This document shows positions 1 through 32,000 of a stretch of DNA of 32,000 nucleotides, one piece after another (the first letter of the stretch is position 1; each line of letters begins with the position of its first letter). A program made the position numbers and the translations under genes. Origin of the DNA: Candidatus Heimdallarchaeota archaeon (lineage in GTDB: Archaea; Asgardarchaeota; Heimdallarchaeia; Heimdallarchaeales; Kariarchaeaceae); contig JASBSB010000008.1 in assembly GCA_030149205.1 (NCBI GenBank), positions 91,318 to 123,317 of the forward strand, written 5' to 3'. The notes beneath the pieces are model-generated. The model had not been told where the DNA came from. It ran no database searches and worked only from the letters and a program-made list of their open reading frames with translations.

Positions 1-1
1 T

Positions 2-607
2 ACCATCAGTAGCAAGTTCCCACTTGAAGAACTCTCTGAAAGCAACATTGGAGACCTTTACAAATCAGCACAACAAAAATACATCAAAGGTACACTAACT
101 GGAATGGAGGTAGATGACCAAACCGGGGTCCCTTCACAACTTGCAGAGCGAGCGAAATTATTGAGAGAAATGGGATACGAGGATGAGTTAACAAAAGCTG
201 AATTTGAGAAAAAGCGAAAACAGGAAACAATGAGTATAAAACAAAAGGCTGGAGAAAGCAAAACAGAAGCAAAAACTCCCTCTGTAGTAAAAACTAAAAC
301 TACATCTACCGTTTCAAAAGCCCCATTGATTGAGGAAGCTTATCCAGAAACTGATCTTAAGAAGGGATTATTTTTTGAAGCGAAAAACATCAAAGAATAT
401 GTGGAGAATAACTTTACTGTAATTTCTGCAAAGGGAGTATTACATGACAATGAAAGAGAAACTGAGGAGCTGTTAGTGTTTAAACAACAAAAATTGGCAC
501 CTAAGCAATGGAACGATACTGTTGTATATCTACAAAATGGTGACTTGTTACAAGTCACCCTAGAAAAAGACCAAGATGTGTTGTATGTAACTAGTGTAGA
601 GAAATAA
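2..607 (+). CDS. Hypothetical protein, 5'-truncated by the window edge
   Basis: The frame of ORF 104..607 stays open back to position 2 (TISSKFPLEELSESNIGDLYKSAQQKYIKGTLTG-MEVDD...), so the gene starts outside the window. It has a charged helical segment, a K/T/S-rich linker and a small C-terminal domain. No recognisable motif. Confidence 0.7.
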   Translation, partial: TISSKFPLEELSESNIGDLYKSAQQKYIKGTLTGMEVDDQTGVPSQLAERAKLLREMGYEDELTKAEFEKKRKQETMSIKQKAGESKTEAKTPSVVKTKTTSTVSKAPLIEEAYPETDLKKGLFFEAKNIKEYVENNFTVISAKGVLHDNERETEELLVFKQQKLAPKQWNDTVVYLQNGDLLQVTLEKDQDVLYVTSVEK

Positions 608-609
608 TA

Positions 610-1464
610 ATGGACCCCATACAATCGGTAATCAACAGTATAAGTATTTTAGATGATGAATTAATAACTGGGAAAGGAGATTACAACATACAGAAATGGA
701 ATCTTAAGAGTAGAAAATTTTTGTTTTCACATGAAATAGGCTGGGAAGTGAGAAAAACAGAAATTTTTCAGGATACTTTATTTGTGGGAAGCTTAGATGG
801 GAAAATTCGAATGTTTGATGTAGACACATTTGAATTTAAGAATGAGCTGATTCATGAAAAAGGTATAACTGCCCTTTTTGTTGATGATCTATTTCTTGTT
901 AGTGGATCATACAATGGTTCAGTCCAGATTAGAGACTCTCAGTCCCTTGAAATAATCTCGGAATTGTCTGCGACTAACGATTGGATAAATACTGTTACTT
1001 CTGATGAGATTCATCTGTATTTGGGAGATGGATTTAGACGTAATTCTCAAATTGACATTTATCACAAAAAGGAAATTGAGAAGGTAAGAGAGTTGAAAGT
1101 ACCAGAAAGCAAAAAAATTTCTGCGATTGAGCTTACTGATAACCTATTGTTTGTTGGTCATTGTTATCCACACCAACTTGTCATCTGGGATGTGCTATCA
1201 TTTGAAATTATAAACATAATCAATGTATTTGACAAGGAGATAGTTTCAATCTTCTCAAATCGAAGATACGTTTATGTAGTATCCAAAAATCAAATTTTAC
1301 AAATTGAAAAATCATCACTTGCAGTTGTAAATATTGTTTATATTAAAGAAGGATCACTCATTACTGCTACTGGGAATAAGGATGAGATATTCGTTGCTCA
1401 GAGGGATAAAGTACTTTGTTATGATTCAAAAAAATTAGAATTGAAGTATAGGATTTTTACTTAA
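610..1464 (+). CDS. WD40/beta-propeller repeat protein
   Basis: Repeated ~40-aa units with WD40-like ends (LITGKGDYNIQKWN, LFVGSLDGKIRMFD, LVSGSYNGSVQIRD, LFVGHCYPHQLVIWD). Starts 2 nt after the upstream stop. Confidence 0.8.
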   Translation: MDPIQSVINSISILDDELITGKGDYNIQKWNLKSRKFLFSHEIGWEVRKTEIFQDTLFVGSLDGKIRMFDVDTFEFKNELIHEKGITALFVDDLFLVSGSYNGSVQIRDSQSLEIISELSATNDWINTVTSDEIHLYLGDGFRRNSQIDIYHKKEIEKVRELKVPESKKISAIELTDNLLFVGHCYPHQLVIWDVLSFEIINIINVFDKEIVSIFSNRRYVYVVSKNQILQIEKSSLAVVNIVYIKEGSLITATGNKDEIFVAQRDKVLCYDSKKLELKYRIFT

Positions 1465-1470
1465 CAATGG

Positions 1471-1478
1471 ATTTATAG
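1471..1478 (+). promoter_or_regulatory. Putative archaeal TATA box for the CoA-transferase gene
   Basis: ATTTATAG at -30..-23 relative to ATG 1501, the spacing expected for a leaderless or short-leader archaeal transcript. Confidence 0.45.
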
Positions 1479-1500
1479 TAACAATTACAATCGATCTGAT

Positions 1501-2601
1501 ATGAGATATGATATCCTGAAGGGAATTAGGGTGCTAGATCTATCCAGAATATTCACTGGCCCATTTGCAAGTCAGTTGTTGGGAGACCTAGGTGCAAACA
1601 TAACAAAGGTAGAACCTCCTTTTGGTGATGATACGAGGTTTTGGGGGCCTCCGTTTATGGACGAAAACCTTTCTGGATATTTTTATTCATTGAACAGGAA
1701 TAAATCGGGTATAACCCTTAACCTCAAAGACTCAGGTGATTTAGATAGATTATATGAGCTTGTAAAAAAAGCCGATATTGTAATTGAGAACTTTAAGCAT
1801 GGTGTCCCACAACAACTTAAAATTAGTTATGAAATACTATCAAAGATAAACCCTACATTAATCTATCTATCAATAAATGGCTTCCACAGTTCTGGAAAAT
1901 TTAAGGAGAGACCTTCCTATGATATAATTGCCCAGGCTGAGGCAGGTATCATGAGCTTAACTGGGACTGAAACAGGTGAGATCGTGAAGGTTGGTGTACC
2001 TATTGCTGACATTTCAGCAGGAATGTATGGAGTGATTGGAATACTTACTGCTTTACATCATAGGGATATGACCGGAAAGGGAACTTATTTAGAAACTGAC
2101 TTATTTTCGTCTCTCACTTCATGGCTTACTTATCAGGCTGTAAATAACCAACTATTGGAACCCAGACATACATTAATGGGTACTAGTCACCCAAATATTG
2201 TCCCTTATCGAGCATACAATTGTAAGGATGACAGAAAAATAGTATTAGCCGTAGGGAACGATAAGACTTGGGTCAATTTTCTAAAGGTGCTAAATAACCC
2301 CAAGACTCTTCAAAAATACTCAACAAATGAGTCAAGAGTTCAATTTAGATTGATTGTTGATTCTGAAATTCAGAAAATATTATTAACAAATGACTTGGAT
2401 CATTGGGAGCTTAAATTTACAACAGCTGGAATTCCTTATGGGAAAGTTTCTAATCTCGATGATGTAATGAATCATGAAGATGTTAAATCCAACAATTTAT
2501 TAATTGAATTTGAAGATGCTCAAGTTTTTAGAACTCCTATTAATTTTCGTGGGCAGACTCTATTGAGGTCTGAAGAACCCCCTAAATTTAATGATGGTTA
2601 A
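1501..2601 (+). CDS. Family III CoA-transferase (CaiB/BaiF)
   Basis: N-terminal LKGIRVLDLSRIFTGPFASQLLGDLGANITKVEPP, plus GDDTR, NRNKSGITLNLK, ADIVIENF and the catalytic Asp region PIADISAGMYG. Confidence 0.95.
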   Translation: MRYDILKGIRVLDLSRIFTGPFASQLLGDLGANITKVEPPFGDDTRFWGPPFMDENLSGYFYSLNRNKSGITLNLKDSGDLDRLYELVKKADIVIENFKHGVPQQLKISYEILSKINPTLIYLSINGFHSSGKFKERPSYDIIAQAEAGIMSLTGTETGEIVKVGVPIADISAGMYGVIGILTALHHRDMTGKGTYLETDLFSSLTSWLTYQAVNNQLLEPRHTLMGTSHPNIVPYRAYNCKDDRKIVLAVGNDKTWVNFLKVLNNPKTLQKYSTNESRVQFRLIVDSEIQKILLTNDLDHWELKFTTAGIPYGKVSNLDDVMNHEDVKSNNLLIEFEDAQVFRTPINFRGQTLLRSEEPPKFNDG

Positions 2602-2660
2602 TATTTCTTATGTATCTTCAATGAATTAAATTTCCTAAGATTCTTCACAAATTAAATATT

Positions 2661-3656
2661 TTAGACCCTATTTTCAAGGATAAATGAGTTTACTGCTACA
2701 TATATTGATCCAAGATCATTTTTTAATGTCTCCAATGTTTTTTGTGGTTTTAATGTTAGATCTTCTACCAATAAAGCGACAGAATTAACCACACTTGGAA
2801 CTACGATTAGGTTATTTGGTTTGGTCTCTCTATTAGAAGCTGTTTCAATTATTTTTTCAAGCCAAGTCTTAACAAACATGTTCAAGTCAGGTTTTTCTTC
2901 AGGGTTATAATTTAAAACAACTGGCAGAAAATCAATAAATAAGACGTCTTGAAGCTCATCAAACAGAAGCGGTTTTGGGTTCCTTTGCTTGTACTTCTTC
3001 TGCTTAGTCACCCGAAAAGTTCCTCTCGTTAATGATGAAAAGGTTCCCATAAGATTTGTTGCAGAATAATGTCTTGGTGTGAAAATATGTACCATACGCT
3101 CCTCAAACCCATGATTAAATTTTTTAAGGTTAGTAATTGCCCGCTTAAATCTTTCTTGTTCTCCAATCTGTAAAACAATCGAAGGTGACCAAAGATGCCA
3201 GACTTCAATTGGGGGTAAAAAATCGAAATCTTTCACCTTAGTTTCAGGTACACAAATCAAAGGAAGATTAAGATTTGTATCAACCACAATGACTTCAGGT
3301 CTAAAAGCATTATATTCCATTTGTGAAATCTTGTATATTTTTTGCCAAAACGACTCAATACTTGGGAGTCCCAAAGAAAGTACATTTCTCCACCGATTTA
3401 ACCAAAAATTTTGATTGATTTGCCAGAACATCTCCCCATCCTTTTCTACCGCTTCTAACCAACCGTTTGATTTACGATTTGATACCTCTGAGCTAGCAAT
3501 AATTGTAAAAGTATCAGCATTATTAAAATTAAAATCGCAAAGGAGAGTATTTTTACCCGCCTCAGCATAACTAACTGCTACGGAAATACTCATTGGTGTT
3601 TTTCCTCCCCCACCCTTTGAACCAGTGATTATGATAACCTTTGGTTCTGAAACCAT
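2661..3656 (-). CDS. Atypical ParA/MinD-family P-loop ATPase
   Basis: Deviant Walker A GSKGGGGKT after a hydrophobic strand (KVIIIT), LLCDFN at the D-x-D position and Walker B-like VIVVDT. The C-terminal half is divergent. ATG at 3656 is preferred over TTG at 3659. Confidence 0.75.
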   Translation of the reverse strand: MVSEPKVIIITGSKGGGGKTPMSISVAVSYAEAGKNTLLCDFNFNNADTFTIIASSEVSNRKSNGWLEAVEKDGEMFWQINQNFWLNRWRNVLSLGLPSIESFWQKIYKISQMEYNAFRPEVIVVDTNLNLPLICVPETKVKDFDFLPPIEVWHLWSPSIVLQIGEQERFKRAITNLKKFNHGFEERMVHIFTPRHYSATNLMGTFSSLTRGTFRVTKQKKYKQRNPKPLLFDELQDVLFIDFLPVVLNYNPEEKPDLNMFVKTWLEKIIETASNRETKPNNLIVVPSVVNSVALLVEDLTLKPQKTLETLKNDLGSIYVAVNSFILENRV

Positions 3657-3680
3657 CAAACAGGTTATAATTCATGAGCT

Positions 3681-3694
3681 AATATAAGTTTCGT
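3681..3694 (-). promoter_or_regulatory. Putative BRE-TATA promoter of the ParA-like gene
   Basis: The minus strand reads ACGAAA-CTTATATT, a purine-rich BRE directly followed by a TATA box at -32..-25 from ATG 3656. Confidence 0.55.
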
Positions 3695-3814
3695 ATTTTC
3701 ATTTTGAATTCATCCAATCTATGGACTTATATTGAGACAGTATTGAAATTATTCCATTTAATATTGAACTTTATAGTCACTAAATATCCTTAATTACATA
3801 GGAAAGCCATATTG

Positions 3815-5200
3815 TTAGACCTGTATAGGTATGATATGATTTTCAGATCTAAGTATTTGATCTGTTATTTGGAAAGATTCTGATAAAAGTCCATCACAGG
3901 CAATTGAATTCCAACCTATCCCAGATAAGTAGAGACCAGGATTTTCTTTTTCCATTTTTTCCTTCCATTCTATTATCGATGAATGATCCAAGGTAAATTG
4001 TGGTATTCCCTGGGGATGTTGTCGGTGAACCTCAACAAATTCTGGACTTCCTTTTGCACCCAATAAACCTGATAATTCTTTTGTCACCTCTTCGATAAGT
4101 ATTGAATCATCTAAAGTAGAACGTTCAGGATACCTTGCTCCTCCTACAAAACATCTCAATAGAATTTTATTATCTGGGGCTCTATGATTAAACAACTTAG
4201 AACTAAATAACACACCCAGTACAAAAGTTTTTTCACCTGATGGAGAGAGAAAGCCATATCCGATTGGAGGATTTTCAAAGGCTGTAACATCATAACCCAA
4301 CGAAACTACGGTCACATAAGAAACATTCGGAGGTTTTGGTAGGACTTTACCCATGATTGATATCTTTGTTGCTGCAACAGATCCTGTGGACACAATTATA
4401 TTTTCAGAATAATATGTATCACCTGATACAGTTTGAACTTCATATAACTCATCCTTCTTCTCAATCTTTTCAACGGTTGAATCGTAGCTGACATTTACCT
4501 GACGAGCTAAAGATTTGATCAAACCCTCCATACCTGTATCTGAAACATATAAGAAGGGCTTATCTGCTTTTTTATTTGATTCTATTTTTCCTTGGGAGGA
4601 ATTCTTTTTTTTCTTTGCCGAAGACATCATCCCTTTAACAACTGAACCAGATGATGTTTCAGCTGATTTAAGGAAAGGAAAAGAGTACTTAACACTTGAT
4701 TTAGTATGATCACCTCCATAAATCCCAGACACAAAAGCATCAACAATGGGAGTCACAGATTTACCAAACCTTCGAGAAATAAATTGTTCGACAGTTTCAT
4801 CATCTGGGTTTGCTTTGACAAAGGGTTCTTTTAACAGTCTCAACTTACCTTTCAGTGAGATTATAGGAGTTGATAATGCAGAGAATAATCCAGTGGGTAA
4901 AGAGACAAGCTTGTGGTTTTTAATCAAATACCTAAGCTTTGCTTCGTTCGATGCAGCAACTGGATCTAAGCCCGCAAGTTCAAATATCTTTTTTGTATTT
5001 TCGGATTTCCCTCGTAGACCCTCTGGCCCCCATTCAGATATATACCCATTCTTAGATGTGGTATGTATCAATCCTCCAGGCCTGTTTGCCTTTTCCAAAA
5101 CCAGCAGTTTATCTTTCTCTATACCTTCATGTTGAAGGGATACCGCCGCACTTAATCCTGAAATCCCCGCCCCAATAATTACCGTGTGATATACATTCAT
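3815..5200 (-). CDS. hemY: FAD-dependent protoporphyrinogen oxidase (HemY/PgoX type)
   Basis: Dinucleotide motif VIIGAGISGLSAA, plus EWGPEG, FISRRFG, FVSGIYGGD, GYGFLSP and GIPQFTLDH. Last gene of the heme operon, with AGGAGG 8 nt upstream. Confidence 0.9.
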   Translation of the reverse strand: MNVYHTVIIGAGISGLSAAVSLQHEGIEKDKLLVLEKANRPGGLIHTTSKNGYISEWGPEGLRGKSENTKKIFELAGLDPVAASNEAKLRYLIKNHKLVSLPTGLFSALSTPIISLKGKLRLLKEPFVKANPDDETVEQFISRRFGKSVTPIVDAFVSGIYGGDHTKSSVKYSFPFLKSAETSSGSVVKGMMSSAKKKKNSSQGKIESNKKADKPFLYVSDTGMEGLIKSLARQVNVSYDSTVEKIEKKDELYEVQTVSGDTYYSENIIVSTGSVAATKISIMGKVLPKPPNVSYVTVVSLGYDVTAFENPPIGYGFLSPSGEKTFVLGVLFSSKLFNHRAPDNKILLRCFVGGARYPERSTLDDSILIEEVTKELSGLLGAKGSPEFVEVHRQHPQGIPQFTLDHSSIIEWKEKMEKENPGLYLSGIGWNSIACDGLLSESFQITDQILRSENHIIPIQV

Positions 5201-5212
5201 AGTTTGTTCCTC

Positions 5213-6595
5213 CTAAATTGATTGTGAGAAAAGATGTTTCCCTGGGTCATAATACTGGTCAAATACCGATGCTATGATTCTTGAAAAGATCTTCCCCTTA
5301 GATGTTGACTCCCATCCAGCTTCTGTTACTTGTAACAGACCCAAATTTACAAATTCATCAAGTATCTTTACCTTGGAATTAATTTCATTGACTGCCTTTA
5401 AGCCATACCGTGATTCAACAACTTGGGGATTTATTTCTCCTTGACAGAGAAAATCCATTATTAATTTCTTGTGTAGAATATCATCTGAACTCATTGAATG
5501 ACCTTTTACCGTTGCAGTACCATATTTTTCAATTAGCCGCTCATATTCAGCCATATCCTTTGAATTTTGAGCGTATGCAAGTTCAAGTTCACTAATTCCA
5601 GAATAACCTAATGCAATTAAGTCTGTCCCTGCTTTTGTTGTATACCCCATAAAATTTCTTCTTAAGGTCTTTTTTTCATAACTTTGCCAAAGTCCATCAT
5701 GCTTTGTTGAAAAATGATCAAAGCCGATTTGTTCATAATCTTGATTAATAAAAAATTTACGTGCTGAAAGAAATCGATTCAATTTTTCTGATCCTTTCGC
5801 AATCACATTTAATGGAATAGCTTTATGATGCCGAAATAATGTGGGAAAATGTGCATAGCTGTACAATGCTATTCGATCAGGATGAATGGTGTTTACAAGT
5901 CGAAGGGTTTTTGCAAAGTTTTCATCTGTCTGGTAGGGTAATCCATAAATTAGATCCATATTTACACTCTCAAATCCCTTTTCTCTTGAATATTCAATTA
6001 ATGAGTTAGTCTCTTCGAAGGTTTGGAATCGGTTAAGTTTTTCTTGAACCTCAGGGTCAAAATCTTGAACTCCCACAGATATACGGTTAAAGTTAAATTC
6101 TGACAACACATCGATATGCTCATCTGATGTGACTGATGGATGTATCTCAATAGATAGTTCTGCGTCCTTGAGGACTTTGAAATTTGTCCAGATTGTTGTA
6201 AATAAGTCTTTGAGTTGATCAGGTGTTAGATGGGTTGGGGTTCCTCCACCTAGGTGTAGCTGTATGACCTCGTTTCTTGGCAAATACAGCTCAGAGGTTT
6301 TACGAATCTCTTCTTTTAGAACTGATAAATACCTTTCAACTCTATCCTCTCTATGTGTTACAAGTACGTTACATGCACAGAATAAACATCTTCTAATGCA
6401 AAACGGGATGTGTAAATAGAGGCTTAATGATTCTTCCTTGTGCTTGCTCTTTTCAATATCATCGAGATAGTTTTGCACGTTGTAATTCGATTTCCAATTA
6501 GGCACCGTCGGATAACTGGTATATCTCGGAACACGTAAGTCAAACTTCTCAATTTCTCCGACTTTTATATCTTCAATAGATTCTTGTTCAATCAT
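5213..6595 (-). CDS. hemN: Oxygen-independent coproporphyrinogen III dehydrogenase (radical SAM)
   Basis: RYTSYPT, CxxxCxxC (HIPFCIRRCLFCACN), LHLGGGTPT and RRNFMGYTT, which mark true HemN rather than the HemW chaperone. Confidence 0.93.
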   Translation of the reverse strand: MIEQESIEDIKVGEIEKFDLRVPRYTSYPTVPNWKSNYNVQNYLDDIEKSKHKEESLSLYLHIPFCIRRCLFCACNVLVTHREDRVERYLSVLKEEIRKTSELYLPRNEVIQLHLGGGTPTHLTPDQLKDLFTTIWTNFKVLKDAELSIEIHPSVTSDEHIDVLSEFNFNRISVGVQDFDPEVQEKLNRFQTFEETNSLIEYSREKGFESVNMDLIYGLPYQTDENFAKTLRLVNTIHPDRIALYSYAHFPTLFRHHKAIPLNVIAKGSEKLNRFLSARKFFINQDYEQIGFDHFSTKHDGLWQSYEKKTLRRNFMGYTTKAGTDLIALGYSGISELELAYAQNSKDMAEYERLIEKYGTATVKGHSMSSDDILHKKLIMDFLCQGEINPQVVESRYGLKAVNEINSKVKILDEFVNLGLLQVTEAGWESTSKGKIFSRIIASVFDQYYDPGKHLFSQSI

Positions 6596-7619
6596 AATTT
6601 TTCCACCTTTTTACTATCTCCACCATCTCACCCACGAGATTAACATCAGAATCTTTATGGATTCCTTGAGCTAAATTAAAAATATATTTGTTCCCAAACT
6701 TTGTCCCTTCCTCTAGAACATGTTGAGTCTCCTTCCTTACTGTATCCAGATTTGTTTGTAGAACACTTGGATCTAGATTCCCTTGTAGTATAACATCTTG
6801 TGAATAGTTTTTACGAACATTTGATAGTGAGAGAGTTGAATCTATACTGATGACATCAAATGAAAGCTTAACAAGTTCTGGAAGCAAATGCGAACTCCCT
6901 CTTGCATAGATTGAGTTTGGAACACCATTCAGACTTTGGATGATCTTCTTCAAGTGGGGAGAAACCCATTGCTGAAATTGCCAGGGAGATAAATAAAGTG
7001 CCCAAGATTCAAAAATTTGAACCATATCAACACCAGCAGACATTTGAGAATTTAGCTGAGATATGATTATATCACTTAATTTATCTAAGAGATTGTCAAA
7101 TGCATCTGGATAAAGGTATGCAAATTTTTTTGTTTTCAATGCGTCACGGGTAGATTTACCCTCAATTAAGTAACTTGCAAGGGTGAATGGCCCTCCTGCA
7201 AAACCTATCAACCATTTATCACTAATTTCTTCTCTAACTAGCTTCAAAGACTCTACAACGTAGGGGAAATCTTCATCAGGTTGCGGGATAAGTATGTCCG
7301 AAATCTCTATTGGATTTGTTAATGGTTTCTGCAGTTTAGGACCTTGGTTTGGAACAATCTTTAACCCCCTCTGCATGTAGTAAAGTGGTATTAAAATATC
7401 AGAGAAAATAATTGCTGCATCGAGGTTAAATCTTTGAATTGGTTGCAGAGTTATTTCTTTTGCAATATTTGCATTCATCACCATATCCTCAAAGGATTTG
7501 CCTTCACGAAGTTTTCGATACTCAGGGAGGTAACGACCGGCTTGTCGCATAAACCAGATAGGAGGTCTTTCTGGGGTGATTCCTTTAAATAACGATGAAA
7601 AAAGTTCTCTCGAGGTCAT
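6588..7619 (-). CDS. hemE: Uroporphyrinogen decarboxylase
   Basis: PPIWFMRQAGRYLPEY, IIFSDIL, FAGGPFTLASYLIEG and LQGNLDP. Overlaps hemL by 4 nt and hemN by 8 nt. Confidence 0.95.
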   Translation of the reverse strand: MTSRELFSSLFKGITPERPPIWFMRQAGRYLPEYRKLREGKSFEDMVMNANIAKEITLQPIQRFNLDAAIIFSDILIPLYYMQRGLKIVPNQGPKLQKPLTNPIEISDILIPQPDEDFPYVVESLKLVREEISDKWLIGFAGGPFTLASYLIEGKSTRDALKTKKFAYLYPDAFDNLLDKLSDIIISQLNSQMSAGVDMVQIFESWALYLSPWQFQQWVSPHLKKIIQSLNGVPNSIYARGSSHLLPELVKLSFDVISIDSTLSLSNVRKNYSQDVILQGNLDPSVLQTNLDTVRKETQHVLEEGTKFGNKYIFNLAQGIHKDSDVNLVGEMVEIVKRWKNYD

Positions 7620-8905
7620 AAGTTTGTCACCACCTCAGAAATTTTATCAAGAGTCCAATTAAGAATTTTAGAACTATGAGCTGTAGACAGAAATGATACC
7701 TCGAATGGACTCGGTGGCAAATAAACTCCTTGTTTCAACAACTTTTTGTGAAAGACTTTATATTTGTCTTGTGCGTCGATTCCAAGCTGCTCTGGCTTAA
7801 AAATTGTCCTATTTTCTTGAAATACAATCCAAAGAATGCTTGCAAGAGATACAACACCAGCTTGAATCGAATTATCCGCAAAAATTGAATCTAATGCCTT
7901 TGCGTAATCTTCAGATTTTTTATCTAACTCTCTGTAAACATTTCCATTTTGATCTGACAAAATTTCTAGCGTGGTTAATCCAGCACTCATCGCCACCGGA
8001 TTACCACTCAATGTACCTGCTTGATACACTGGACCAAGCGGAGCAATGTAACTCATTAAGTCAGCTCTTCCTCCGTAGGCACCTACAGGAAATCCTCCAC
8101 CTATAATCTTTCCAAAGGTAACAATATCTGGATATAGGTTGTAATATCCTGTAGCTCCAGCCAGTCCAATCCTAAATCCAGTAATGACCTCATCAAGAAT
8201 AAACATAGATCCATATTCTTTACAATGAGATTGAATTTCATGCATAAATGTACTAGATTGAACTAACAATCCGTTATTTGCTGGAACGCCTTCAATAATC
8301 ACTGCTGCTATATCTTCCCCGAACTTTTCAAAGAGAGCTTTCAACTTGTCTGAATCACCTAATGGTAGAACAAGAGTTTCAGAAGAGACTGAGGAAGGAA
8401 CTCCTGCACTTGAACTCAATCCAATTGTAGCCAAACCGCTTCCGGCTTTTACAAGCATAGAATCTGCGTGCCCATGGTAAGTTCCCTCAAATTTTACAAT
8501 GTATCGTCTATTTGTGTACCCCCTTGCCAATCTGATGGCAGACATGACAGCCTCTGTTCCACTATTCACAAAACGGATCCAATCGGTAGAAGGATGAAGC
8601 TCAATAATTTTCTCTGCGAGTTCGACTTCAATACGAGAAGAGGTACCATAGGTTAACCCATTTTTAATCTGCTTCTCCACTGCCTTAATTACTCGCTGAT
8701 CTGAATGACCCAAAATTAGAGGACCGAAACTCATGCAATAATCAATGTATTGCTGACCTTCCACATCTACTAAAGTTGTTTCATAACTCTTTTCTATAAA
8801 CAAAGGATCACCATCTACAGAGTTTAAAGCTCTCACAGGTGAAGATACACCTCCAGGCATTACTTTGCGAGCCCGTTGTTTAATGTCATTTAATCTTTCA
8901 ACCAT
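7616..8905 (-). CDS. hemL: Glutamate-1-semialdehyde 2,1-aminomutase
   Basis: MPGGVSSPVRA, RFVNSGTEA, KFEGTYHGHAD, DEVITGFR, PLP lysine in FGKIIGGGFPVGAYGG, and QAGTLSGNP. Confidence 0.97.
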   Translation of the reverse strand: MVERLNDIKQRARKVMPGGVSSPVRALNSVDGDPLFIEKSYETTLVDVEGQQYIDYCMSFGPLILGHSDQRVIKAVEKQIKNGLTYGTSSRIEVELAEKIIELHPSTDWIRFVNSGTEAVMSAIRLARGYTNRRYIVKFEGTYHGHADSMLVKAGSGLATIGLSSSAGVPSSVSSETLVLPLGDSDKLKALFEKFGEDIAAVIIEGVPANNGLLVQSSTFMHEIQSHCKEYGSMFILDEVITGFRIGLAGATGYYNLYPDIVTFGKIIGGGFPVGAYGGRADLMSYIAPLGPVYQAGTLSGNPVAMSAGLTTLEILSDQNGNVYRELDKKSEDYAKALDSIFADNSIQAGVVSLASILWIVFQENRTIFKPEQLGIDAQDKYKVFHKKLLKQGVYLPPSPFEVSFLSTAHSSKILNWTLDKISEVVTNL

Positions 8906-9867
8906 TGATTTTTCACCAGATCCTCTGCATGATATGTAATAATCATATCTGCACCCGCCCTCCTCATAGCCGTTAAATTTTCAAGAACTATTGATTTTTC
9001 CTCAAATAGCCCTGCTTTTACTGCCACTTTGACCATAGAATATTCTCCACTGACATTATAGGTATAAAGCGGTAAGTTTGTCATTTGACGGGCTTGTTGG
9101 ATAATGTCAAGGAAAGCAAGGGCAGGTTTGACCATCACCGCGTCTGCTCCTTGCTCTCCATCAGCTAAGACCTCAGAAAGTGCTAACCTCCTGTTACGAA
9201 TATCAATTTGATAACTTTTTCTGTCTCCAAAACTTGGTGAACTTTCAGCTGCATCTCGAAAAGGTCCATAATATGAGCTAGAATATTTGGCAGAATAACT
9301 CAAGATTGAGCGGTCAGTATAACCATTTTCATCAAGAGCTTGACGAAGAGAGCGAACTCTAAGATCCAGCATGTTACTAGGTGCCAACCAATCTGCTCCG
9401 GCTTGAGCATAAACTAGACCAGCTTTTGCATACAAATCAAGAGATTTATCATTGTTTACTGAGCTATCCGAATCAAGGATACCACAGTGACCATGTGATG
9501 TGTATTCACAGAGGCAAACATCAGCATATAACTCAATGGAGCGACCGTAAGCCTCCTTTAGTAATCTTAGAGCAGAAGGGACCGGTCCTTTTTCATCGTA
9601 GGCTGATGAACCAACCTCATCTTTATTTTTGGGAATTCCAAATAAAATATAATGTCTTAATCCATCATTTTGAAGTTTATCAATATATTCAGATGCAAGT
9701 TCTGGACTCATTTTGTATATTCCGGGCATAGATTGGATTTCTTTTTTTACACCTTTACCTTCAGTTATGAAAAGCGGATAAACAAGGTGCTTATAACTTA
9801 AATCGGTTTCTGCTAATGACTCTCTGAGAGTTTGGCTTCTCTTATATCTTCTAAATCTGTAATTCAT
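8890..9867 (-). CDS. hemB: Porphobilinogen synthase (ALA dehydratase), Zn-binding type
   Basis: DVCLCEYTSHGHCG zinc site, the two catalytic lysines (YSAKYSSSYYGPFRDA and MVKPAL), and YNVSGEYSMVK. Confidence 0.97.
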   Translation of the reverse strand: MNYRFRRYKRSQTLRESLAETDLSYKHLVYPLFITEGKGVKKEIQSMPGIYKMSPELASEYIDKLQNDGLRHYILFGIPKNKDEVGSSAYDEKGPVPSALRLLKEAYGRSIELYADVCLCEYTSHGHCGILDSDSSVNNDKSLDLYAKAGLVYAQAGADWLAPSNMLDLRVRSLRQALDENGYTDRSILSYSAKYSSSYYGPFRDAAESSPSFGDRKSYQIDIRNRRLALSEVLADGEQGADAVMVKPALAFLDIIQQARQMTNLPLYTYNVSGEYSMVKVAVKAGLFEEKSIVLENLTAMRRAGADMIITYHAEDLVKNQWLKD

Positions 9868-11470
9868 AAGTTTCTAACTCCTTTTTTAATGTGTTAACTA
9901 TACCTTCCACAGTTGGAGACTCTGCCATTTTTGATTTGATTCCAAGTTCATCCAGTTGACTTTGAACTGATTTCCCAATTACAATCCAATTGAACTTAGA
10001 AGATTTTTCCAGGGAATTAATTACATGTAAGACCCCTTTAGTTGAAAATCCAACAATATAATCTGGTTCAAATGGTAATTCAACACTCAGATATTTAGTT
10101 GAATAGACTTTAAAATGATCAACGTACTCAAAGGGTGATACAGTGTAAGACTCACCTGAAAAATATACCACTTTATCTTTAGTGCTTAACACTTCCTTCA
10201 AATGAAGTTGTAATTCACTCATCCCATTTAAGGAAACAATATTGACAGGAAATCCATTTTTTCTTAAAATTTCACTTGTCCTATAACCAACAGCAGCTAC
10301 TTTGAATTTAGACTTTGGAAACTGTTGTTGTAGTTTATTCAAAAATGGAATTGCATGCTTACTGGATATAATTACCCAGTTTGCGGATTTCCAAGATTGA
10401 ATCACATTTGAATTATTGAGTAACGAATAATTAGTTTCATACTCAATGATTTTTAAATTTGAAGCCATGTAACCTAAATTTACGGCTTCAGAAATGTATG
10501 GAGCAGCTGTTTCATCGTCAGTCAAGAATAAAATTGAATTTCCATTATTTTTAGAATCTGATGTTCTTGAATCCATGTTTTCACTGGCTATGAATTTTAA
10601 GAAGCGGTTTTTTAGAGCATTAATTGTATTATCTTGAAGTAAAATTCTATTGAAATTAGAAGTACCAATAGATTCAAGGTAATAGGTGGATGAGAGTTGA
10701 ATTTCACTGTCCCCAACATTTGTTATCGATATCCCAACTCCACTATCACATCCACCAAGAAACTGTCCTAACAATTCCCTCTCAACCTTAGTTATGAGAA
10801 AGCTATCTTCATCACCGATCTCTCTCAATTCAGAATACTCACCTTTTCTTACTTGAACCGCAATAGCAGATTGTCCAGGAGATGTTGGGAATCTGTCAAG
10901 GGGGAGAATTATCATCTGAATGTTCTTAGCAATTTTTAGAACTATTCTGTCAAAAACAGCTGCAGACATAACTAATCCATCGATATATTCTGTTTCAAGT
11001 TGTTTCACTCTTGTATGAACATTTCCTCTAATATCAAGTGGGATAATCGTTGGATCTAGAGCTTTTAGTTGGCTTCTTCTACGAATTGAACCTGTGGCTA
11101 TTCTTGAAAATTTTCTTATTTTTAAAGGTGATGTTGATAATAAGTTATCAGATTTAATCAACAGAACATCATTTGGAGTGTCACGCTTTAGAACAGTAAC
11201 TATTTCTAACTCATCTGGTTGTTCTAAGGGTAAATCTTTCAAACTATGAACTGCTATGTCAATCTTACCTTCCAGTAATTCTTGCTCCAATCTGCTTGTA
11301 AATACACCCTGTCCTCGGAAGCTTGAGATGGGGGAAACCAAATCAATATCACCCTTACTTGAGATTCCTTTAATCGTAACTTCTTGGTTGAGCTTATTGA
11401 TAATGGCATCTTTAACCATTTTAGCCTGAATTAAGGCTAATTCGCTCTTTCTGGTTCCTATACTGATCAA
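9851..11470 (-). CDS. hemC: Hydroxymethylbilane synthase fused to a uroporphyrinogen III synthase domain (HemC-HemD)
   Basis: The N-terminal ~300 aa has IGTRKSELAL, DIAVHSLKD, GSIRRRSQL, DIRGNVHTR and the cofactor Cys in GGCDSG. The C-terminal ~230 aa looks like HemD (WVIISSKHAI, AAVGYRTSEIL, IVIGKSV, AESPTVEGIV). The TTG start overlaps the hemA TGA. Confidence 0.88.
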   Translation of the reverse strand: MISIGTRKSELALIQAKMVKDAIINKLNQEVTIKGISSKGDIDLVSPISSFRGQGVFTSRLEQELLEGKIDIAVHSLKDLPLEQPDELEIVTVLKRDTPNDVLLIKSDNLLSTSPLKIRKFSRIATGSIRRRSQLKALDPTIIPLDIRGNVHTRVKQLETEYIDGLVMSAAVFDRIVLKIAKNIQMIILPLDRFPTSPGQSAIAVQVRKGEYSELREIGDEDSFLITKVERELLGQFLGGCDSGVGISITNVGDSEIQLSSTYYLESIGTSNFNRILLQDNTINALKNRFLKFIASENMDSRTSDSKNNGNSILFLTDDETAAPYISEAVNLGYMASNLKIIEYETNYSLLNNSNVIQSWKSANWVIISSKHAIPFLNKLQQQFPKSKFKVAAVGYRTSEILRKNGFPVNIVSLNGMSELQLHLKEVLSTKDKVVYFSGESYTVSPFEYVDHFKVYSTKYLSVELPFEPDYIVGFSTKGVLHVINSLEKSSKFNWIVIGKSVQSQLDELGIKSKMAESPTVEGIVNTLKKELETYELQI

Positions 11471-12600
11471 TTAGAATAGACCTCCTCATCAAGCACATCT
11501 TCAAACCTTTTTTGTGAGATGTACATTATCTCGTTAACAAATTTCTCAAAGTTCCGTTTTGCCTTCTTATCTTCTTTTAAAAATAAACCCATTCTTTGTT
11601 CGGCAACAACTTTTACATCTGACCTAAAACTTTTCCAAAATTCAGATTTTGAGAGTCTTTGATACTCTTTCAGAATTTTCAAAAGCTCATCATCCAACAT
11701 TTCCCTAATTCCACGGAACTCACCATCATCATCAAAGTTTCTAGAAAGAGAAAGCAAGGATTCCATTGAAAAGACATTAATATTCTCCAGATCCTTAATT
11801 TCTGGATGACAGTTTCTAGGGAGACCAAAATCAAATATTAGTTTCTCAGAGTTTAAAGGAAAGTCAGAAGAATAAACAAATGGTGTCTCTGCACGTGTGG
11901 TATAGAAAAGAACTGGATGATTAGGGACAGAATTATAAGATTCAGCCCGGTAACCCTCCAATTCAAGACCCAATCTATTTTCTGTTCTTGTATAAACTGT
12001 AATGTTATCATTCAATTCTTTAAGATGGTGAACAATTATCTCAGCCATCTTTCCCGTTCCCACAACACCTAGAGAAGAAGCTTGTTTAATTTGCTGTTCA
12101 AAATTTGATGCAACAAAATAAATTGTAGATTTTTTTGCATAAGATAAAATTGTGGAAGACCTTAGACGCTTTCCCGTACGAATTACCATTTGCATTAAGC
12201 GCTTCAAGTCACCACTCATGTAAGGCTCTGATTCAGTATACGCTGTTTTGAATTGATGTTGAATCTGGTCTTCCCCAATAACCAATGAATCAAGTGAAGA
12301 GATAACCTCAAGTAAGTGCTCTAATCCCTGTTTTCCTTGTAATTGTTCACAGCTTTGCAAATCTTTCCAATGGTTAAATTTACGGAGCCTTTCAAGATAT
12401 TGTTCTGATTGTTCTTTATCTGAATTTAACGTTACAAGTAAAACCCTTTGACAAGTGTTCAGGTAAAAAAAATTTCCGAATACCTTGTGAATCTCCTTCA
12501 AATATTGAGCTCTGTTCTCAGATGGTAGAATCACTTTTTCAACATCCTCAATGCTACATCTCCCCAGCCTCCACGACAGAACCAAAAGAGGAAAATCCAT
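11467..12600 (-). CDS. hemA: Glutamyl-tRNA reductase
   Basis: Catalytic YLNTCQR (canonical TCNR), HLLEVISSLDSLVIGEDQI, NADPH site GVVGTGKMA and DFGLPRN. The start is placed at ATG 12600 (MDFPLL...), which follows GGAGG by 9 nt and lies 2 nt after the hemH stop. Confidence 0.88.
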   Translation of the reverse strand: MDFPLLVLSWRLGRCSIEDVEKVILPSENRAQYLKEIHKVFGNFFYLNTCQRVLLVTLNSDKEQSEQYLERLRKFNHWKDLQSCEQLQGKQGLEHLLEVISSLDSLVIGEDQIQHQFKTAYTESEPYMSGDLKRLMQMVIRTGKRLRSSTILSYAKKSTIYFVASNFEQQIKQASSLGVVGTGKMAEIIVHHLKELNDNITVYTRTENRLGLELEGYRAESYNSVPNHPVLFYTTRAETPFVYSSDFPLNSEKLIFDFGLPRNCHPEIKDLENINVFSMESLLSLSRNFDDDGEFRGIREMLDDELLKILKEYQRLSKSEFWKSFRSDVKVVAEQRMGLFLKEDKKAKRNFEKFVNEIMYISQKRFEDVLDEEVYSN

Positions 12601-12601
12601 C

Positions 12602-13624
12602 TCAATTTTCCTCCAAGTAACCTTGCAAAAATTGGGCAACTTTGTTTGCGTAATCATCATCATCATTTGGAACTGAGACTCGAACATAGTTCCGAACACC
12701 ATATTTCTTGGCCAAGTCACCATATAAGATATCAATCTCATACAAGGTTTCTACATGGTCTGAAACGAATCCTAGGGGAACCATAATGATTGTAGAAGGA
12801 GATGTTTTCGAAATTTCCTCTACGGTTTTATCTGTGTAAGGTCTTAACCAAGGAAGAGGTCCAACCTTACTTTGGTAAGAAAGATGAAAGCTAATCTGAT
12901 TTTTGTATTCTCCTAATCCATCGATTATAAGTTGTTTAGCCTCTTCTATCCTTCTGGGATATTGTTCACCACGATCTACATATTTTTGTGGTAACCCATG
13001 AGCAGAAAATACCACGTGAACATTTTTATCCATCACCATCCCATCTTTCTGGAATTGTGTAAGTTTATTCTTAATCTCATCACTCCACCAGTCGATGTAA
13101 AAACCCTGTGTTGTCCAATCATCAATTTCTGTTATTGTCAAATGTGAAGTATTTTCTTGTGTTTCTAGAAACCTATAAAAATCATTGAAACTAGAACCTG
13201 TAGTTGCAGAAGCATAGTGTGGGTATTGAGAAAATAACAAGATGTGGTCATACCCATTTGTAATTTGTGATTTTAACTCCTCAACTCTCGGATAAGTATA
13301 TCTCATAACAACTTGAGTATCCACATCTAATCCAGATTCAACTAAGTTTGATTTAACTTTATTCGCCAATGATTCAGTGATAAGAAGAATAGGACTTCCA
13401 TTCCCAATTTGACCGTACATATGACGTGTTCCCTTTGATCTGAATATTGAAACCATTTTTCCAAACTGTTTTTGAAAGAGGTTCATAGGAAAAGGGAGTT
13501 GGATCATGTCCTTATCTTCAAAAATATTTTGAAGGAATTTAGGGATATCTTCAAGTGTCTCAGGTCCACCCATATTTAGAAATAAAATTAAAGTCTTCTT
13601 TTTACTAGATCCTAGACCACTCAT
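12602..13624 (-). CDS. hemH: Protoporphyrin ferrochelatase
   Basis: LFLNMGGPETLED, FSQYPHYASATTGSS, FSAHGLP, SYQSKVGPLPWL and VPLGFVSDHVETLYEID. Confidence 0.96.
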   Translation of the reverse strand: MSGLGSSKKKTLILFLNMGGPETLEDIPKFLQNIFEDKDMIQLPFPMNLFQKQFGKMVSIFRSKGTRHMYGQIGNGSPILLITESLANKVKSNLVESGLDVDTQVVMRYTYPRVEELKSQITNGYDHILLFSQYPHYASATTGSSFNDFYRFLETQENTSHLTITEIDDWTTQGFYIDWWSDEIKNKLTQFQKDGMVMDKNVHVVFSAHGLPQKYVDRGEQYPRRIEEAKQLIIDGLGEYKNQISFHLSYQSKVGPLPWLRPYTDKTVEEISKTSPSTIIMVPLGFVSDHVETLYEIDILYGDLAKKYGVRNYVRVSVPNDDDDYANKVAQFLQGYLEEN

Positions 13625-13652
13625 AAAGCTCTAGACTTTATACCACATTTAA

Positions 13653-13660
13653 CTTTAAAA
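13653..13660 (-). promoter_or_regulatory. Putative TATA box of the heme operon
   Basis: Minus-strand TTTTAAAG at -36..-29 from the hemH ATG. Confidence 0.4.
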
Positions 13661-13824
13661 GGAATAGTTTCTTTGATTCCGGAATCACCTGAACCTTTGT
13701 GGTTACGAAAAAATAAAGAGATTTTCATCTTTAATATTGAAAACATAAAGTAATTGTCTGTGGAATTAATATTCATTAAACTAAACATTTAACATTATAG
13801 TTTGGTTATCTTAAAGAAAAGATC

Positions 13825-13850
13825 AAAATAAATAGTCACTTATTTATTTT
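13825..13850. repeat. Perfect 10-bp inverted repeat in the divergent intergenic region
   Basis: AAAATAAATA-gtcact-TATTTATTTT. AT-rich, so the significance is limited. Confidence 0.45.
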
Positions 13851-13879
13851 ATCGCTCAGCGTCAGTCAAATCACAGGGT

Positions 13880-14170
13880 GTGGTCACAGTTTTAGGTGAA
13901 CAGAGAAATATAAATACAGAGAATAAAAAATTGAATGAAGTAGAAGCAGAACAGGGAGAAAAAGAACAGATTATACCTCTCCAGCAACTAAAAGATCGAG
14001 ACCTTTCCATAATTAAATTTAAGCAGTATCAACCAAATAATTTGCATCAATTCCAAAACACACCAGATCAGAAGAAATTTTCAAACAAGAGAAAAAATAT
14101 TGCTAACCTAAGCAGACCTGTGTCATTGAAGTCAGTGATATTTAAGCTCGTGAGTGAGGTGAATATTTGA
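13880..14170 (+). CDS. Hypothetical small protein (doubtful)
   Basis: 96-aa Q/N/K/E-rich ORF with a GTG start. The only support is a 4-nt TTGA overlap with the next gene. Confidence 0.3.
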   Translation: MVTVLGEQRNINTENKKLNEVEAEQGEKEQIIPLQQLKDRDLSIIKFKQYQPNNLHQFQNTPDQKKFSNKRKNIANLSRPVSLKSVIFKLVSEVNI

Positions 14171-15321
14171 AATTATCAGAGAAAAATAAACTGTTATTAG
14201 TCTCGATACTAGTAATTTCCCTTACCACAGGCTCTATTGGATCATTTCCGGGGATAATTTATTTTTATGGACATCTCGGTCCCGTCATCTTCGCTGTATG
14301 GAGCCCAGATGGGTCAACGATAGTCTCCGGGGGTGCGGATACAAATATAATCATTTGGGACGTTAAAAACTCTTCATCAAGCACTGGCCTCTATAAATCA
14401 CCATTTATGGATGATTTTAGAGGGGACCCAATTTCAGGGTTAGCTTGGTCACCAAATGGGACTTATCTCGCGGGTATGAGCTGGAAAGATGGATTACATA
14501 TCTGGAATGAAAGCTACCACAAAAAGACCACTTTTCATCCTGCTGGTTACTCCTTTAGTGCTATGTCGTGGTTTGAAGGTGGCTTTCTGCTTGGGTTACT
14601 GGTGGGCGAGAATCGAGTTAACCCATATTTATCACTGAACGCAATCCTTGCAAGACCTAACTTGATAAATGGGAGTATATCTCCAATCCTGAAAACAAAT
14701 GCCACAATCTTAGACATCAAGGTGAACAGAAACAATCAGGTGGCACTGCTCTTGAAAAACAGCACGGTTGTCACCATAATTGGCACCCAGCAACAATCCT
14801 ATGTGTTCCAGCACATGCCGAAGGCAATCGAATGGGACAATCAAACCTTGGTAGTTAGTGTTCGCAACGAGATACGGTTTTTTGATGGCAAAAACACGGT
14901 GTTGAAGAACTCAAAAGATGTGACCGCTTTCGCCTTTAATTCCAACCACTCTGAGCTGATTCTTGGAGATGACAGAGGAGTGGTAAGTGTCTGGAACAAA
15001 ACAGACCTCACGAAGAAACTAGAATTTAAGACACCATCTTATAGAATTCACAACTTTGATTGGAGAGGTTCCTCAGTGTTGATCACAAGCAGTAATTCAA
15101 GTTTTTTCCTGTATTCGACCAGCAATGGGACACTGTTGGATTCTTATGGAGGTGTTCTGAGTTCCATTCCTGGTTCCCATTACCCTGTGGGACAATATCT
15201 TGATTACCCCTTTGTCTCAATTCTATTAATTTTTGTTCTTATCATTCCAATTATGAAACGAAGAAAACTTTTGCATACAATCAATCGAAGGTCTTACAAA
15301 AATATCTCTGAACTAAATTAA
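14167..15321 (+). CDS. Secreted, C-terminally membrane-anchored WD40 beta-propeller protein
   Basis: Signal-like N-terminus (KNKLLLVSILVISL), WD40 units (AVWSPDGSTIVSGGADTNIIIWD, LAWSPNGTYLAG, LILGDDRGVVSVWN) and C-terminal TM FVSILLIFVLIIPI followed by KRRK. Confidence 0.8.
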   Translation: MKLSEKNKLLLVSILVISLTTGSIGSFPGIIYFYGHLGPVIFAVWSPDGSTIVSGGADTNIIIWDVKNSSSSTGLYKSPFMDDFRGDPISGLAWSPNGTYLAGMSWKDGLHIWNESYHKKTTFHPAGYSFSAMSWFEGGFLLGLLVGENRVNPYLSLNAILARPNLINGSISPILKTNATILDIKVNRNNQVALLLKNSTVVTIIGTQQQSYVFQHMPKAIEWDNQTLVVSVRNEIRFFDGKNTVLKNSKDVTAFAFNSNHSELILGDDRGVVSVWNKTDLTKKLEFKTPSYRIHNFDWRGSSVLITSSNSSFFLYSTSNGTLLDSYGGVLSSIPGSHYPVGQYLDYPFVSILLIFVLIIPIMKRRKLLHTINRRSYKNISELN

Positions 15322-31964: not shown

Positions 31965-32000
31965 CTTTCTGAAGAAGCACCCCAGAATATGTTGCAGATA

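Follow-up and report, generated by a model that had tools for sequence, protein, structure and literature searches.

Organization of the heme operon

The operon described here lies in the genome of a Candidatus Heimdallarchaeota archaeon (GenBank assembly GCA_030149205.1), within a stretch of 32,000 nucleotides from contig JASBSB010000008.1 that was analyzed as a whole and is referred to below as the window; coordinates are those of the window unless stated otherwise. On its minus strand, from position 13624 down to position 3815, eight co-directional open reading frames (ORFs) follow one another in the order hemH-hemA-hemC/D-hemB-hemL-hemE-hemN-hemY, hemC and hemD being fused in a single gene. 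The genes were named with Pfam and NCBIfam profiles by comparing scores with curated cut-offs, and each of the eight is present in a single copy in the genome.

The first gene, hemH (12602..13624), encodes a ferrochelatase of the protoporphyrin type (PpfC) with 340 residues, which scores 296 bits against PF00762 and 280 bits against TIGR00109 (cut-off 124.6). It is followed by hemA (11467..12600), whose product of about 377 residues is a glutamyl-tRNA reductase with a GlutR_N match (86 bits, cut-off 27) and a Shikimate_DH domain, and by the hemC/hemD fusion (9851..11470), which has a TTG start and encodes a hydroxymethylbilane synthase and uroporphyrinogen-III synthase in one chain of 539 residues (TIGR00212, 206 bits, cut-off 164; PF01379 at residues 2-211 and PF02602, or HEM4, at residues 354-525). 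The product of hemB (8890..9867) is a zinc-type porphobilinogen synthase (ALAD) of 325 residues (PF00490, 433 bits; NF006762, 419 bits, cut-off 297), and that of hemL (7616..8905) a glutamate-1-semialdehyde 2,1-aminomutase of 429 residues (NF000818, 549 bits, cut-off 398; TIGR00713, 527 bits). Uroporphyrinogen decarboxylase, with 343 residues, is encoded by hemE (6588..7619; PF01208, 353 bits; TIGR01464, 357 bits, cut-off 303), and the oxygen-independent coproporphyrinogen III dehydrogenase, a radical S-adenosylmethionine (SAM) enzyme of 460 residues, by hemN (5213..6595; TIGR00538, 450 bits, cut-off 325). The last gene, hemY (3815..5200), encodes a flavin adenine dinucleotide (FAD)-dependent protoporphyrinogen IX oxidase of 461 residues, probably of the PgoX type (TIGR00562, 253 bits, cut-off 98; PF01593, 123 bits). 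All operon genes except hemA pass an NCBIfam curated cut-off.

The genes are closely coupled. A single nucleotide separates hemH from hemA, and 12 nucleotides lie between hemN and hemY; at the other junctions the genes overlap, hemA with hemC/D by 4 nucleotides, hemC/D with hemB by 17, hemB with hemL by 16, hemL with hemE by 4 and hemE with hemN by 8. An earlier reading of this DNA, made from its sequence without database searches (the sequence-only reading), had described eight genes joined by overlaps or by gaps of at most 12 nucleotides, and the ORF calls and junctions agree with it. The longest hemA ORF reaches position 12741 and would overlap hemH by 140 nucleotides, and its GlutR_N match starts at its residue 62. 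The ATG at 12600 was taken as the most likely start because of this offset and the 1-nucleotide gap that it leaves to the hemH stop.

Motifs resembling GGAGG precede most of the gene starts. Upstream of hemH lies an AT-rich intergenic region (13625..13879, minus strand), read from the sequence, which is shared with a divergent gene and is probably the promoter. It holds TTTTAAAG about 28-35 nucleotides and TATAAA about 13-18 nucleotides before the hemH ATG, and an archaeal TATA box may be placed here. We infer that the eight genes are co-transcribed.

The host archaeon is Kariarchaeaceae-like and belongs to Heimdallarchaeia, a class of Asgard archaea. Its genome contains an archaeal small-subunit ribosomal RNA (1198 bits), and the closest database proteins all carry the names Candidatus Heimdallarchaeota or Kariarchaeaceae, LC_2 and LC_3 included; the sequence-only reading had already taken the DNA to be probably archaeal.

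Enzyme signatures and the route to heme

The operon genes are real and look functional. Motif inspection found intact catalytic motifs in HemN, HemB, HemC, HemA, HemL and HemH. HemA has an NTCQR motif with the catalytic-type cysteine, HemL has the pyridoxal phosphate-lysine motif FGKIIGGG, and HemB has a cysteine-rich metal (zinc) site, DVCLCEYTSHGHCG. The cofactor cysteine of HemC, Cys241 in GGCDSG, is invariant across 13 archaeal homologs. HemN contains CxxxCxxCxC at residues 66-75, including the fourth cysteine of true HemN, and the solved relatives of HemE score about 220 bits.

The best solved relative of HemH is human mitochondrial ferrochelatase at 194 bits, followed by the yeast enzyme at 156 bits, compared with at most 92 bits for CpfC of Firmicutes (B. 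subtilis CpfC, 92 bits). The HemH motifs LNMGGPETL, FSAHGLP and SDHVETLYEID align with methionine, histidine and acidic residues of the human enzyme, which we take to be M76, H263 and H341/E343; where HemH keeps the methionine of LNMGGP, CpfC presumably has a tyrosine. HemH stops short of the [2Fe-2S] tail. The score pattern and the conserved Met, His and Glu are those of a PpfC-type ferrochelatase.

A link to eukaryotes through HemH was also considered, as the best solved match is human and many long proteins (400-570 residues), probably eukaryotic or plastid-type ferrochelatases, rank high. It was rejected because the long proteins, in a tree of 192 rows, make up a clade of their own that is not sister to the archaeal one. 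For HemE, HemB and HemC, bacterial or archaeal structures outscore the human ones, and apart from HemH no enzyme that was compared with solved structures does better with eukaryotic than with prokaryotic ones.

Pathway genes were sought in the whole genome, which is 93.5% complete, and, for ChdC and AhbA/B, also in four operon-bearing relatives. Neither the genome nor the four relatives had a match to ChdC/HemQ (PF06778), which was found in control genomes including Bacillus and Corynebacterium, or to AhbA/B (PF17805), which was found in the controls Haloferax, Sulfolobus and Methanosarcina. AhbD is absent from the genome, where the best match is a generic radical-SAM score of 75 bits against a cut-off of 500 bits. 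The TP_methylase family (PF00590; SUMT/CobA/CysG) has no match in the genome and matches in 14 of 14 control genomes, which closes the way from uroporphyrinogen III to siroheme, to cobalamin and into the Ahb route. Given the completeness of 93.5%, the SUMT and AhbA/B route is likely to be truly absent. The same lack of a PF00590 match means that a diphthine-synthase-type methylase also seems to be missing.

With no SUMT-type methylase, AhbA/B, AhbD or ChdC, uroporphyrinogen III would go to heme only by the protoporphyrin-dependent (PPD) route. HemA and HemL would make 5-aminolevulinate from glutamyl-tRNA, HemB would convert it to porphobilinogen, and the fused HemC/D would yield uroporphyrinogen III. 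HemE would then form coproporphyrinogen III, and the radical-SAM HemN would take this to protoporphyrinogen IX without a need for oxygen. The FAD-dependent HemY would oxidize protoporphyrinogen IX to protoporphyrin IX, into which HemH would insert iron to give protoheme. Only the protoporphyrin-dependent route makes coherent sense of a cluster that has a true HemN together with a ferrochelatase of the PpfC type. The sequence-only reading had proposed this pathway and had seen no ahb, cysG or hemQ gene in the cluster; the profile scores and the ferrochelatase type point the same way, and the profile scans extend the absence of these genes to the whole genome.

The genome also encodes likely users of the product. 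It contains three genes for heme-copper oxidase subunit I (COX1) and a cytochrome bd. A heme o synthase gene, ctaB (272 bits), lies directly upstream of the best COX1 gene (G000:C2:101730-105122, G000 being the genome under study), and the sole match to CtaA, the heme a synthase, is an archaeal-style ORF of 173 residues that covers half of the Pfam model. Heme b, as well as hemes o and a formed by CtaB and CtaA, would be supplied to the three heme-copper oxidases and cytochrome bd. Because these oxidases co-occur with it, the operon bears on aerobic capacity, as the sequence-only reading had suggested.

Relation to known heme pathways

The enzymes correspond step by step to the classical PPD pathway of Gram-negative bacteria and eukaryotes (GtrR/HemA, GsaM/HemL, PbgS/HemB, HmbS/HemC, UroS/HemD, UroD/HemE, CgdH/HemN, PgoX/HemY and PpfC/HemH), with the canonical family at each step and the checked signature residues kept. 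The Heimdall operon pairs the oxygen-independent HemN with an oxygen-dependent HemY-type oxidase. It differs from the classical pathway in its archaeal host, in having all steps in one operon with hemH first and hemC and hemD fused, and in the deep clade that its proteins form by themselves. With the archaeal Ahb pathway and the coproporphyrin-dependent (CPD) operons of Thermoplasmata and Bathyarchaeia it shares the end product and the early steps to uroporphyrinogen III (Storbeck et al. 2010, PMC3004389). Unlike these, the Heimdall genome has no SUMT, AhbA/B, AhbC/D or ChdC, and its late steps are those of HemE, HemN, HemY and HemH.

The pathway as such is already known in Heimdallarchaeia. 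Earlier publications describe PPD heme synthesis in Ca. Heimdallarchaeota and unclassified Euryarchaeota, with a suggestion of horizontal gene transfer (PMC11459464, 2024), count the making of heme among the features that mark Heimdallarchaeia as aerobic (bioRxiv 10.1101/2024.07.04.601786), and tabulate HemA/L/B/C/E/N/G/H in metagenome-assembled genomes (MAGs) of Heimdallarchaeia (PMC11193907, Fig. 3). These reports concern the same lineage and pathway, suggest transfer as we do, and name the two host groups that were recovered here; in the parts available they give gene content from automatic annotation. The HemC-HemD fusion is not listed in the available part of a survey of archaeal gene fusions (PMC11237513). 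What the present analysis adds is the fixed order of the eight genes, the HemC/D fusion, the per-gene phylogeny of the block and the negative result for Leptospira.

Distribution of the operon among archaea

The comparison set is cited by codes for families (f1, f3-f7, f31), genera (g6, g14), loci (L) and genomes (G). In a set of 83 genomes from the class, HemC/D in fused form was found in 8 of 11 genomes of f1, all three of f4 and one of two of f6. It was not found in f3 (0/31), f7 (0/12) or 21 of the 22 genomes of f5, and in the remaining f5 genome only the HemC part is matched, and that partially. Every sufficiently long contig from f1, f4 and f6 has the order hemH-A-CD-B-L-E-N-Y, shorter contigs hold cut parts of it, and all operon-bearing archaea have the fused HemC/D. 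This order is common to loci L002-L013, L097 and L098, and the proteins of the window fall in the f1 subclade in every tree. Across 400 Asgard genomes, strong HemH matches are confined to f1, f4 and f6, and any HemB at all occurs in 19; the few Asgards that have HemB outside the operon carry unfused hemB-hemL-hemC clusters.

The same eight-gene operon is present in GCA_054014235.1, which groups with f6, and in 'Euryarchaeota archaeon' GCA_019347805.1 (L098), which has a GC content of 66%. In the class of the latter, the fused gene was found in 2 of 197 genomes and a third genome has a close partial HemC match. Locus L114 (G536:C3:46500-66400) reads H-A-CD-B-L-E-x-Y: it is without hemN, about 780 nucleotides lie between hemE and hemY, and a TGA falls inside the HemC/D match. 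The genomes of L114 and L098 are high in GC (64-66%) and have the Heimdall-type operon, whereas low-GC members of that class have the ordinary hemA-B-L-C cluster. The sequence-only reading had proposed a synteny search, and the order hemH-A-CD-B-L-E-N-Y was thus recovered from three Heimdall families and a 'Euryarchaeota' lineage. None of the genes that flank the operon in the window adjoins it in relatives. As the flanks differ, synteny outside the operon gives no support for vertical descent, and the conserved unit is the operon itself.

Heme-copper oxidase subunit I is more widely spread than the operon, being found in 10 of 11 genomes of f1, 2 of 3 of f4, both of f6 and 9 of 22 of f5. Family f5 has large genomes and possibly represents Hodarchaeales. 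Its oxidase-bearing genomes, of genus g14, are G047, G048, G052, G053, G060-G062, G064 and G067 (about 450 bits). HemH was found in none of the 22 f5 genomes, and a match to HemB and HemC was found only in G059, a genome without the oxidase. Judged by gene content, the nine oxidase-bearing f5 genomes are probably those of heme auxotrophs. Heme auxotrophy has been predicted to be widespread in Asgardarchaeota (bioRxiv 10.1101/2021.01.11.426183).

Phylogeny and origin of the operon

All trees are unrooted, and the concatenate of the eight proteins is a quick tree. Bacteria were represented by 80 loci among the matches listed (at least 600 stretches) and by best-hit lists, which are a sample rather than the nearest relatives. 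The concatenate and each of the eight single-gene trees unite the sequences of operon-bearing Heimdallarchaeia in one well-supported clade apart from all sampled bacteria. Support for the clade is 100 for the HemC domain and for HemL, 99 for HemA, HemY and the concatenate, and, for the Heimdall rows, 99 for HemE and 98 for HemH and HemB. The HemN tree, with 56 rows, gives support of 100 and places the 'Thermoplasmata/Euryarchaeota' sequences among the Heimdall ones. The 'Euryarchaeota' operon joins the Heimdall clade in five single-gene trees.

The early genes of the operon are not the ordinary archaeal ones. The HemL proteins of the hemB-L-C and hemA-B-L-C clusters, which come from other Asgards and from another archaeal class, group by themselves (100) and away from operon HemL, and operon HemC and HemA are likewise set apart from those of other Asgards. 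Grouping with vertically inherited archaeal homologs, which the sequence-only reading had named as an outcome that would speak against transfer, was thus not seen for HemL, HemC or HemA. Since each tree has one Heimdall clade and the archaeal-type HemL stands in another, the block reads as one evolutionary unit. By the same phylogenies, the operon is old, and it is inherited and moves as a block, also into the high-GC 'Euryarchaeota' lineage.

For HemC and HemY, and by identity also for HemE and HemH, the nearest named bacteria among the matches listed are Ignavibacteriota, Bacteroidota, Balneolota and Chlorobiota-like; the nearest named bacterial homologs of HemY among those matches come from Balneolota, Bacteroidota, Ignavibacteriota and Verrucomicrobiota. 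Operons of these FCB-group bacteria resemble the Heimdall operon in having a complete PPD set in one cluster. A Marinilabiliaceae MAG (JAFGBR010000077) has the order A-CD-B-L-E-N-H-Y without inserts, and MAGs of Ignavibacteria/'Bacteroidetes' have A-C-..-E-N-H-Y-B-L. Among the matches listed, FCB proteins are the nearest named bacterial ones for HemC, HemE, HemH and HemY (31-42% identity), and their HemB is 47-51% identical. In contrast to the Heimdall operon, hemH in the FCB operons stands between hemN and hemY and the fusion is found in some only, where it arose independently; in the concatenate they form a clade (100) separate from the archaeal operons. Two near relatives of HemH lie in E-N-H-Y and H-E clusters.

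In the HemC tree, the bacterial HemC/D fusions (Flavobacteriia, Marinilabiliaceae and Sumerlaeota) are nested among unfused relatives, and the fusion is therefore polyphyletic and recurrent. Another fused HemC/D protein sits in an A-CD-B arrangement. A Logan contig of 10.4 kb (L106, SRR29911479) encodes a fused HemC/D with PF03900 in a coproporphyrin-type cluster, CD-B-ChdC-E-HemY-L.

Identity to any bacterial homolog in the comparison set is at most about 50%, which would make the event an ancient one. The operon most likely has an ancient bacterial origin, nearest to the Bacteroidota/Ignavibacteriota/Balneolota type. A transfer from bacteria to archaea is the favored direction because hemE, hemN, hemY and hemH are very widely distributed in bacteria and very narrowly in archaea, and because the gene order is bacterial and the early genes are separate from archaeal-type ones. 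The unrooted trees, with the 80-locus bacterial sample and the best-hit lists, did not single out a donor. The sequence-only reading had suggested an en-bloc transfer from bacteria. Block behavior in the eight gene trees agrees with this, and the link to Leptospira is not supported; the transfer, if bacterial, would be ancient and has no single candidate donor.

Alternative explanations

A pathway of bacterial type in an archaeal bin might come from a contaminating bacterial contig, and the estimated contamination of the bin is 2.8%. This explanation is excluded. Thirteen other Heimdallarchaeia assemblies hold the same operon, the GC content of the operon matches that of the genome (35-39%), and a large pilin-like gene 4 kb from the operon has orthologs (53-55%) in genomes of the same genus and in closed genomes of a sister family. 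The operon proteins are 41-62% identical to those of relatives, a divergence similar to that of the pilin-like neighbor. Furthermore, a 52.5-kb Logan contig, which is an independent assembly of the probable source sample, spans the operon and its flank at even depth and agrees with window positions 1-14322 without a difference, and fragments that are 98-99% alike occur in a hydrothermal-vent metagenome of a second study. That the contig might be bacterial, the first doubt raised by the sequence-only reading, thus found no support in the ribosomal RNA, the operons of congeners, the flank orthologs or the Logan contig. It is also conceivable that an archaeal cluster of this kind runs the CPD route, with HemY as CgoX, HemH as CpfC, HemN as a HemW-like chaperone and the last decarboxylation left to an undescribed enzyme. 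The solved relatives of HemY (3i6d, 2ivd and 1sez) score 140-152 bits, and B. subtilis CgoX (3i6d, 152 bits) is slightly ahead of M. xanthus PgoX (2ivd, 146 bits), so that PgoX and CgoX are inseparable by score. We nevertheless regard the CPD route as very improbable: neither ChdC nor AhbD was found in the genome, HemH retains the methionine of LNMGGP and scores twice as high with protoporphyrin ferrochelatases as with CpfC, and HemN, with its fourth cysteine, lies above the HemN equivalog cut-off and, at only 131 bits with the HemW model, below that of HemW. The closest named HemY homologs among the matches listed are from Gram-negative phyla, which presumably use the PPD route. With HemN present, ChdC absent and these nearest relatives, PgoX is the favored identity of HemY. 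In the PPD reading, the HemE score against TIGR01464 and the presence of HemN account for a UroD and for an enzyme that converts coproporphyrinogen III to protoporphyrinogen IX.

Two further explanations concern the source of the genes. The sequence-only reading had named a Leptospira order that the operon resembles. It gave this order correctly: the L. interrogans genes are named hemACDBLENYH in PMC2266917 (Fig. 1 legend), and the chromosome II record (NZ_CP020413.2) has a short hemA (290 residues), fused hemC/D, hemB, hemL, a histidine kinase, a response regulator, hemE, hemN, a DUF5683 gene and the oxidase; hemH stands at the far end and is encoded by the other strand. The two clusters share the core order of hemA, fused hemC/D, hemB, hemL, hemE, hemN and a HemY-type oxidase, and a quick HemL tree, the only one to do so, joins Leptospira to the operon clade (99, on a long branch). 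However, the sequence comparisons contradict a recent transfer, and it is very improbable that a Leptospira-like spirochaete passed on the cluster en bloc, be it recently or directly. The Heimdall operon lacks the inserted two-component system and DUF5683 gene and has hemH first, and Leptospira proteins are 26-46% identical to those of the window, below Ignavibacteriota or Bacteroidota for most genes. In the concatenate, Leptospira falls into neither the archaeal nor the FCB clade, its branch is much longer than all others, and it is the most distant of the sampled bacteria. Neither the full order with its inserts nor a specific protein relationship is therefore shared, the recurrent fusion is no mark of kinship, and the Marinilabiliaceae MAG has an equally similar order without inserts. 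As the Marinilabiliaceae and Ignavibacteria orders show, the shared order is no Leptospira signature; it arises where hemA-C-D-B-L and hemE-N-(H)-Y, both of them common blocks in bacteria, stand next to each other. Piecemeal assembly, in which early genes inherited vertically within archaea (hemA, L, B, C and D) were joined by bacterial late genes taken up separately (hemE, N, Y and H), is a more serious competitor, although still an unlikely one. The best solved match of HemB is 5lzl (329 bits, against 293 bits for E. coli), which we take to be the enzyme of the archaeon Pyrobaculum calidifontis; one HemB tree puts the HemB of an f31 Asgard, from a hemB-L-C cluster, beside the operon clade; and HemN has other nearest named bacteria than HemC and HemY. 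The f31 HemB, however, shifts to the other side of the tree when more taxa are included, and the scarcity of HemB among Asgards leaves little vertical stock from which it could have come. The separate positions of operon HemL, HemC and HemA also argue against piecemeal assembly, as does the A-CD-B-L order, which is the bacterial one, compared with A-B-L-C or B-L-C in archaea.

Several observations nevertheless weigh against an old bacterial block that carries the whole PPD route, including the HemB and HemY structure scores given above. HemA reaches 138 bits with TIGR01035, under the cut-off of 210, and passes the Pfam GlutR_N model only. The nearest named bacteria vary by gene, being of the FCB group for HemC and HemY and Myxococcota and Acidobacteriota, among the matches listed, for HemN. 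At its deeper nodes the HemB tree has little resolution, with the 'Euryarchaeota' HemB weakly joined or unresolved, and the HemE of the high-GC 'Euryarchaeota' joins long-branched Actinomycetota, a join flagged as possibly false. With unrooted trees and limited bacterial sampling, a bacterial donor and a direction into archaea are at most probable. Finally, the topology within the operon clade departs from the family codes, as f4 stands beside f6 and is accompanied by one f1 genus; inheritance has therefore not been purely vertical, and exchange within Heimdallarchaeia is likely. Locus L012 (G043, f1, genus g6) groups with f4 and f6 and not with other f1 genera in the HemA, HemB, HemC, HemL and HemH trees, which hints at such an exchange of the operon.

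Other features of the window

A CRISPR array occupies positions 29472-32000 and runs past the end of the window. Its 30-nucleotide repeat, GTTTCCAGACCATAAAGGTACTTCTTAGAC, occurs in at least 38 copies at a spacing of 64-71 nucleotides, and one spacer occurs twice (30583 and 31113). The ORF list of the window contains no cas gene. A peroxiredoxin (AhpC/TSA) gene directly abuts a gene for a VIT1-family iron transporter (23004-24241); this pair, for oxidative stress and the handling of iron, lies some 10 kb away from the heme operon. The window gave no match in scans with Rfam or for tRNA genes, and no RNA run was listed that contains the stretch.

Conclusions

We are confident, on balance, that the eight genes form one transcription unit for the whole classical PPD route, which would be the sole tetrapyrrole pathway of this archaeon, and that the operon is a long-standing trait of three Heimdallarchaeia families that moves as a block and most likely has an ancient bacterial origin. 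It most likely works as its bacterial counterparts do, feeding the terminal oxidases. Because aerobic respiration requires heme, the operon shows which Asgards can make their own oxidase cofactor, and it lends support to the view, already in print, that Heimdallarchaeia of the Kariarchaeaceae type have the equipment to respire oxygen. It also provides a compact, clonable target for testing heme synthesis in Asgards.

A broader scenario can be offered more tentatively, and we hold it to be possible rather than probable. A single ancient capture of an FCB-like super-operon may have made some oxidase-bearing members of f1, f4 and f6 self-sufficient for heme, the cassette may later have passed from Heimdallarchaeia to a high-GC lineage of another archaeal class, and f5 may depend on the heme of partners. 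If true, close relatives of the eukaryotic host would have a metabolic dependency that is concrete and can be tested.

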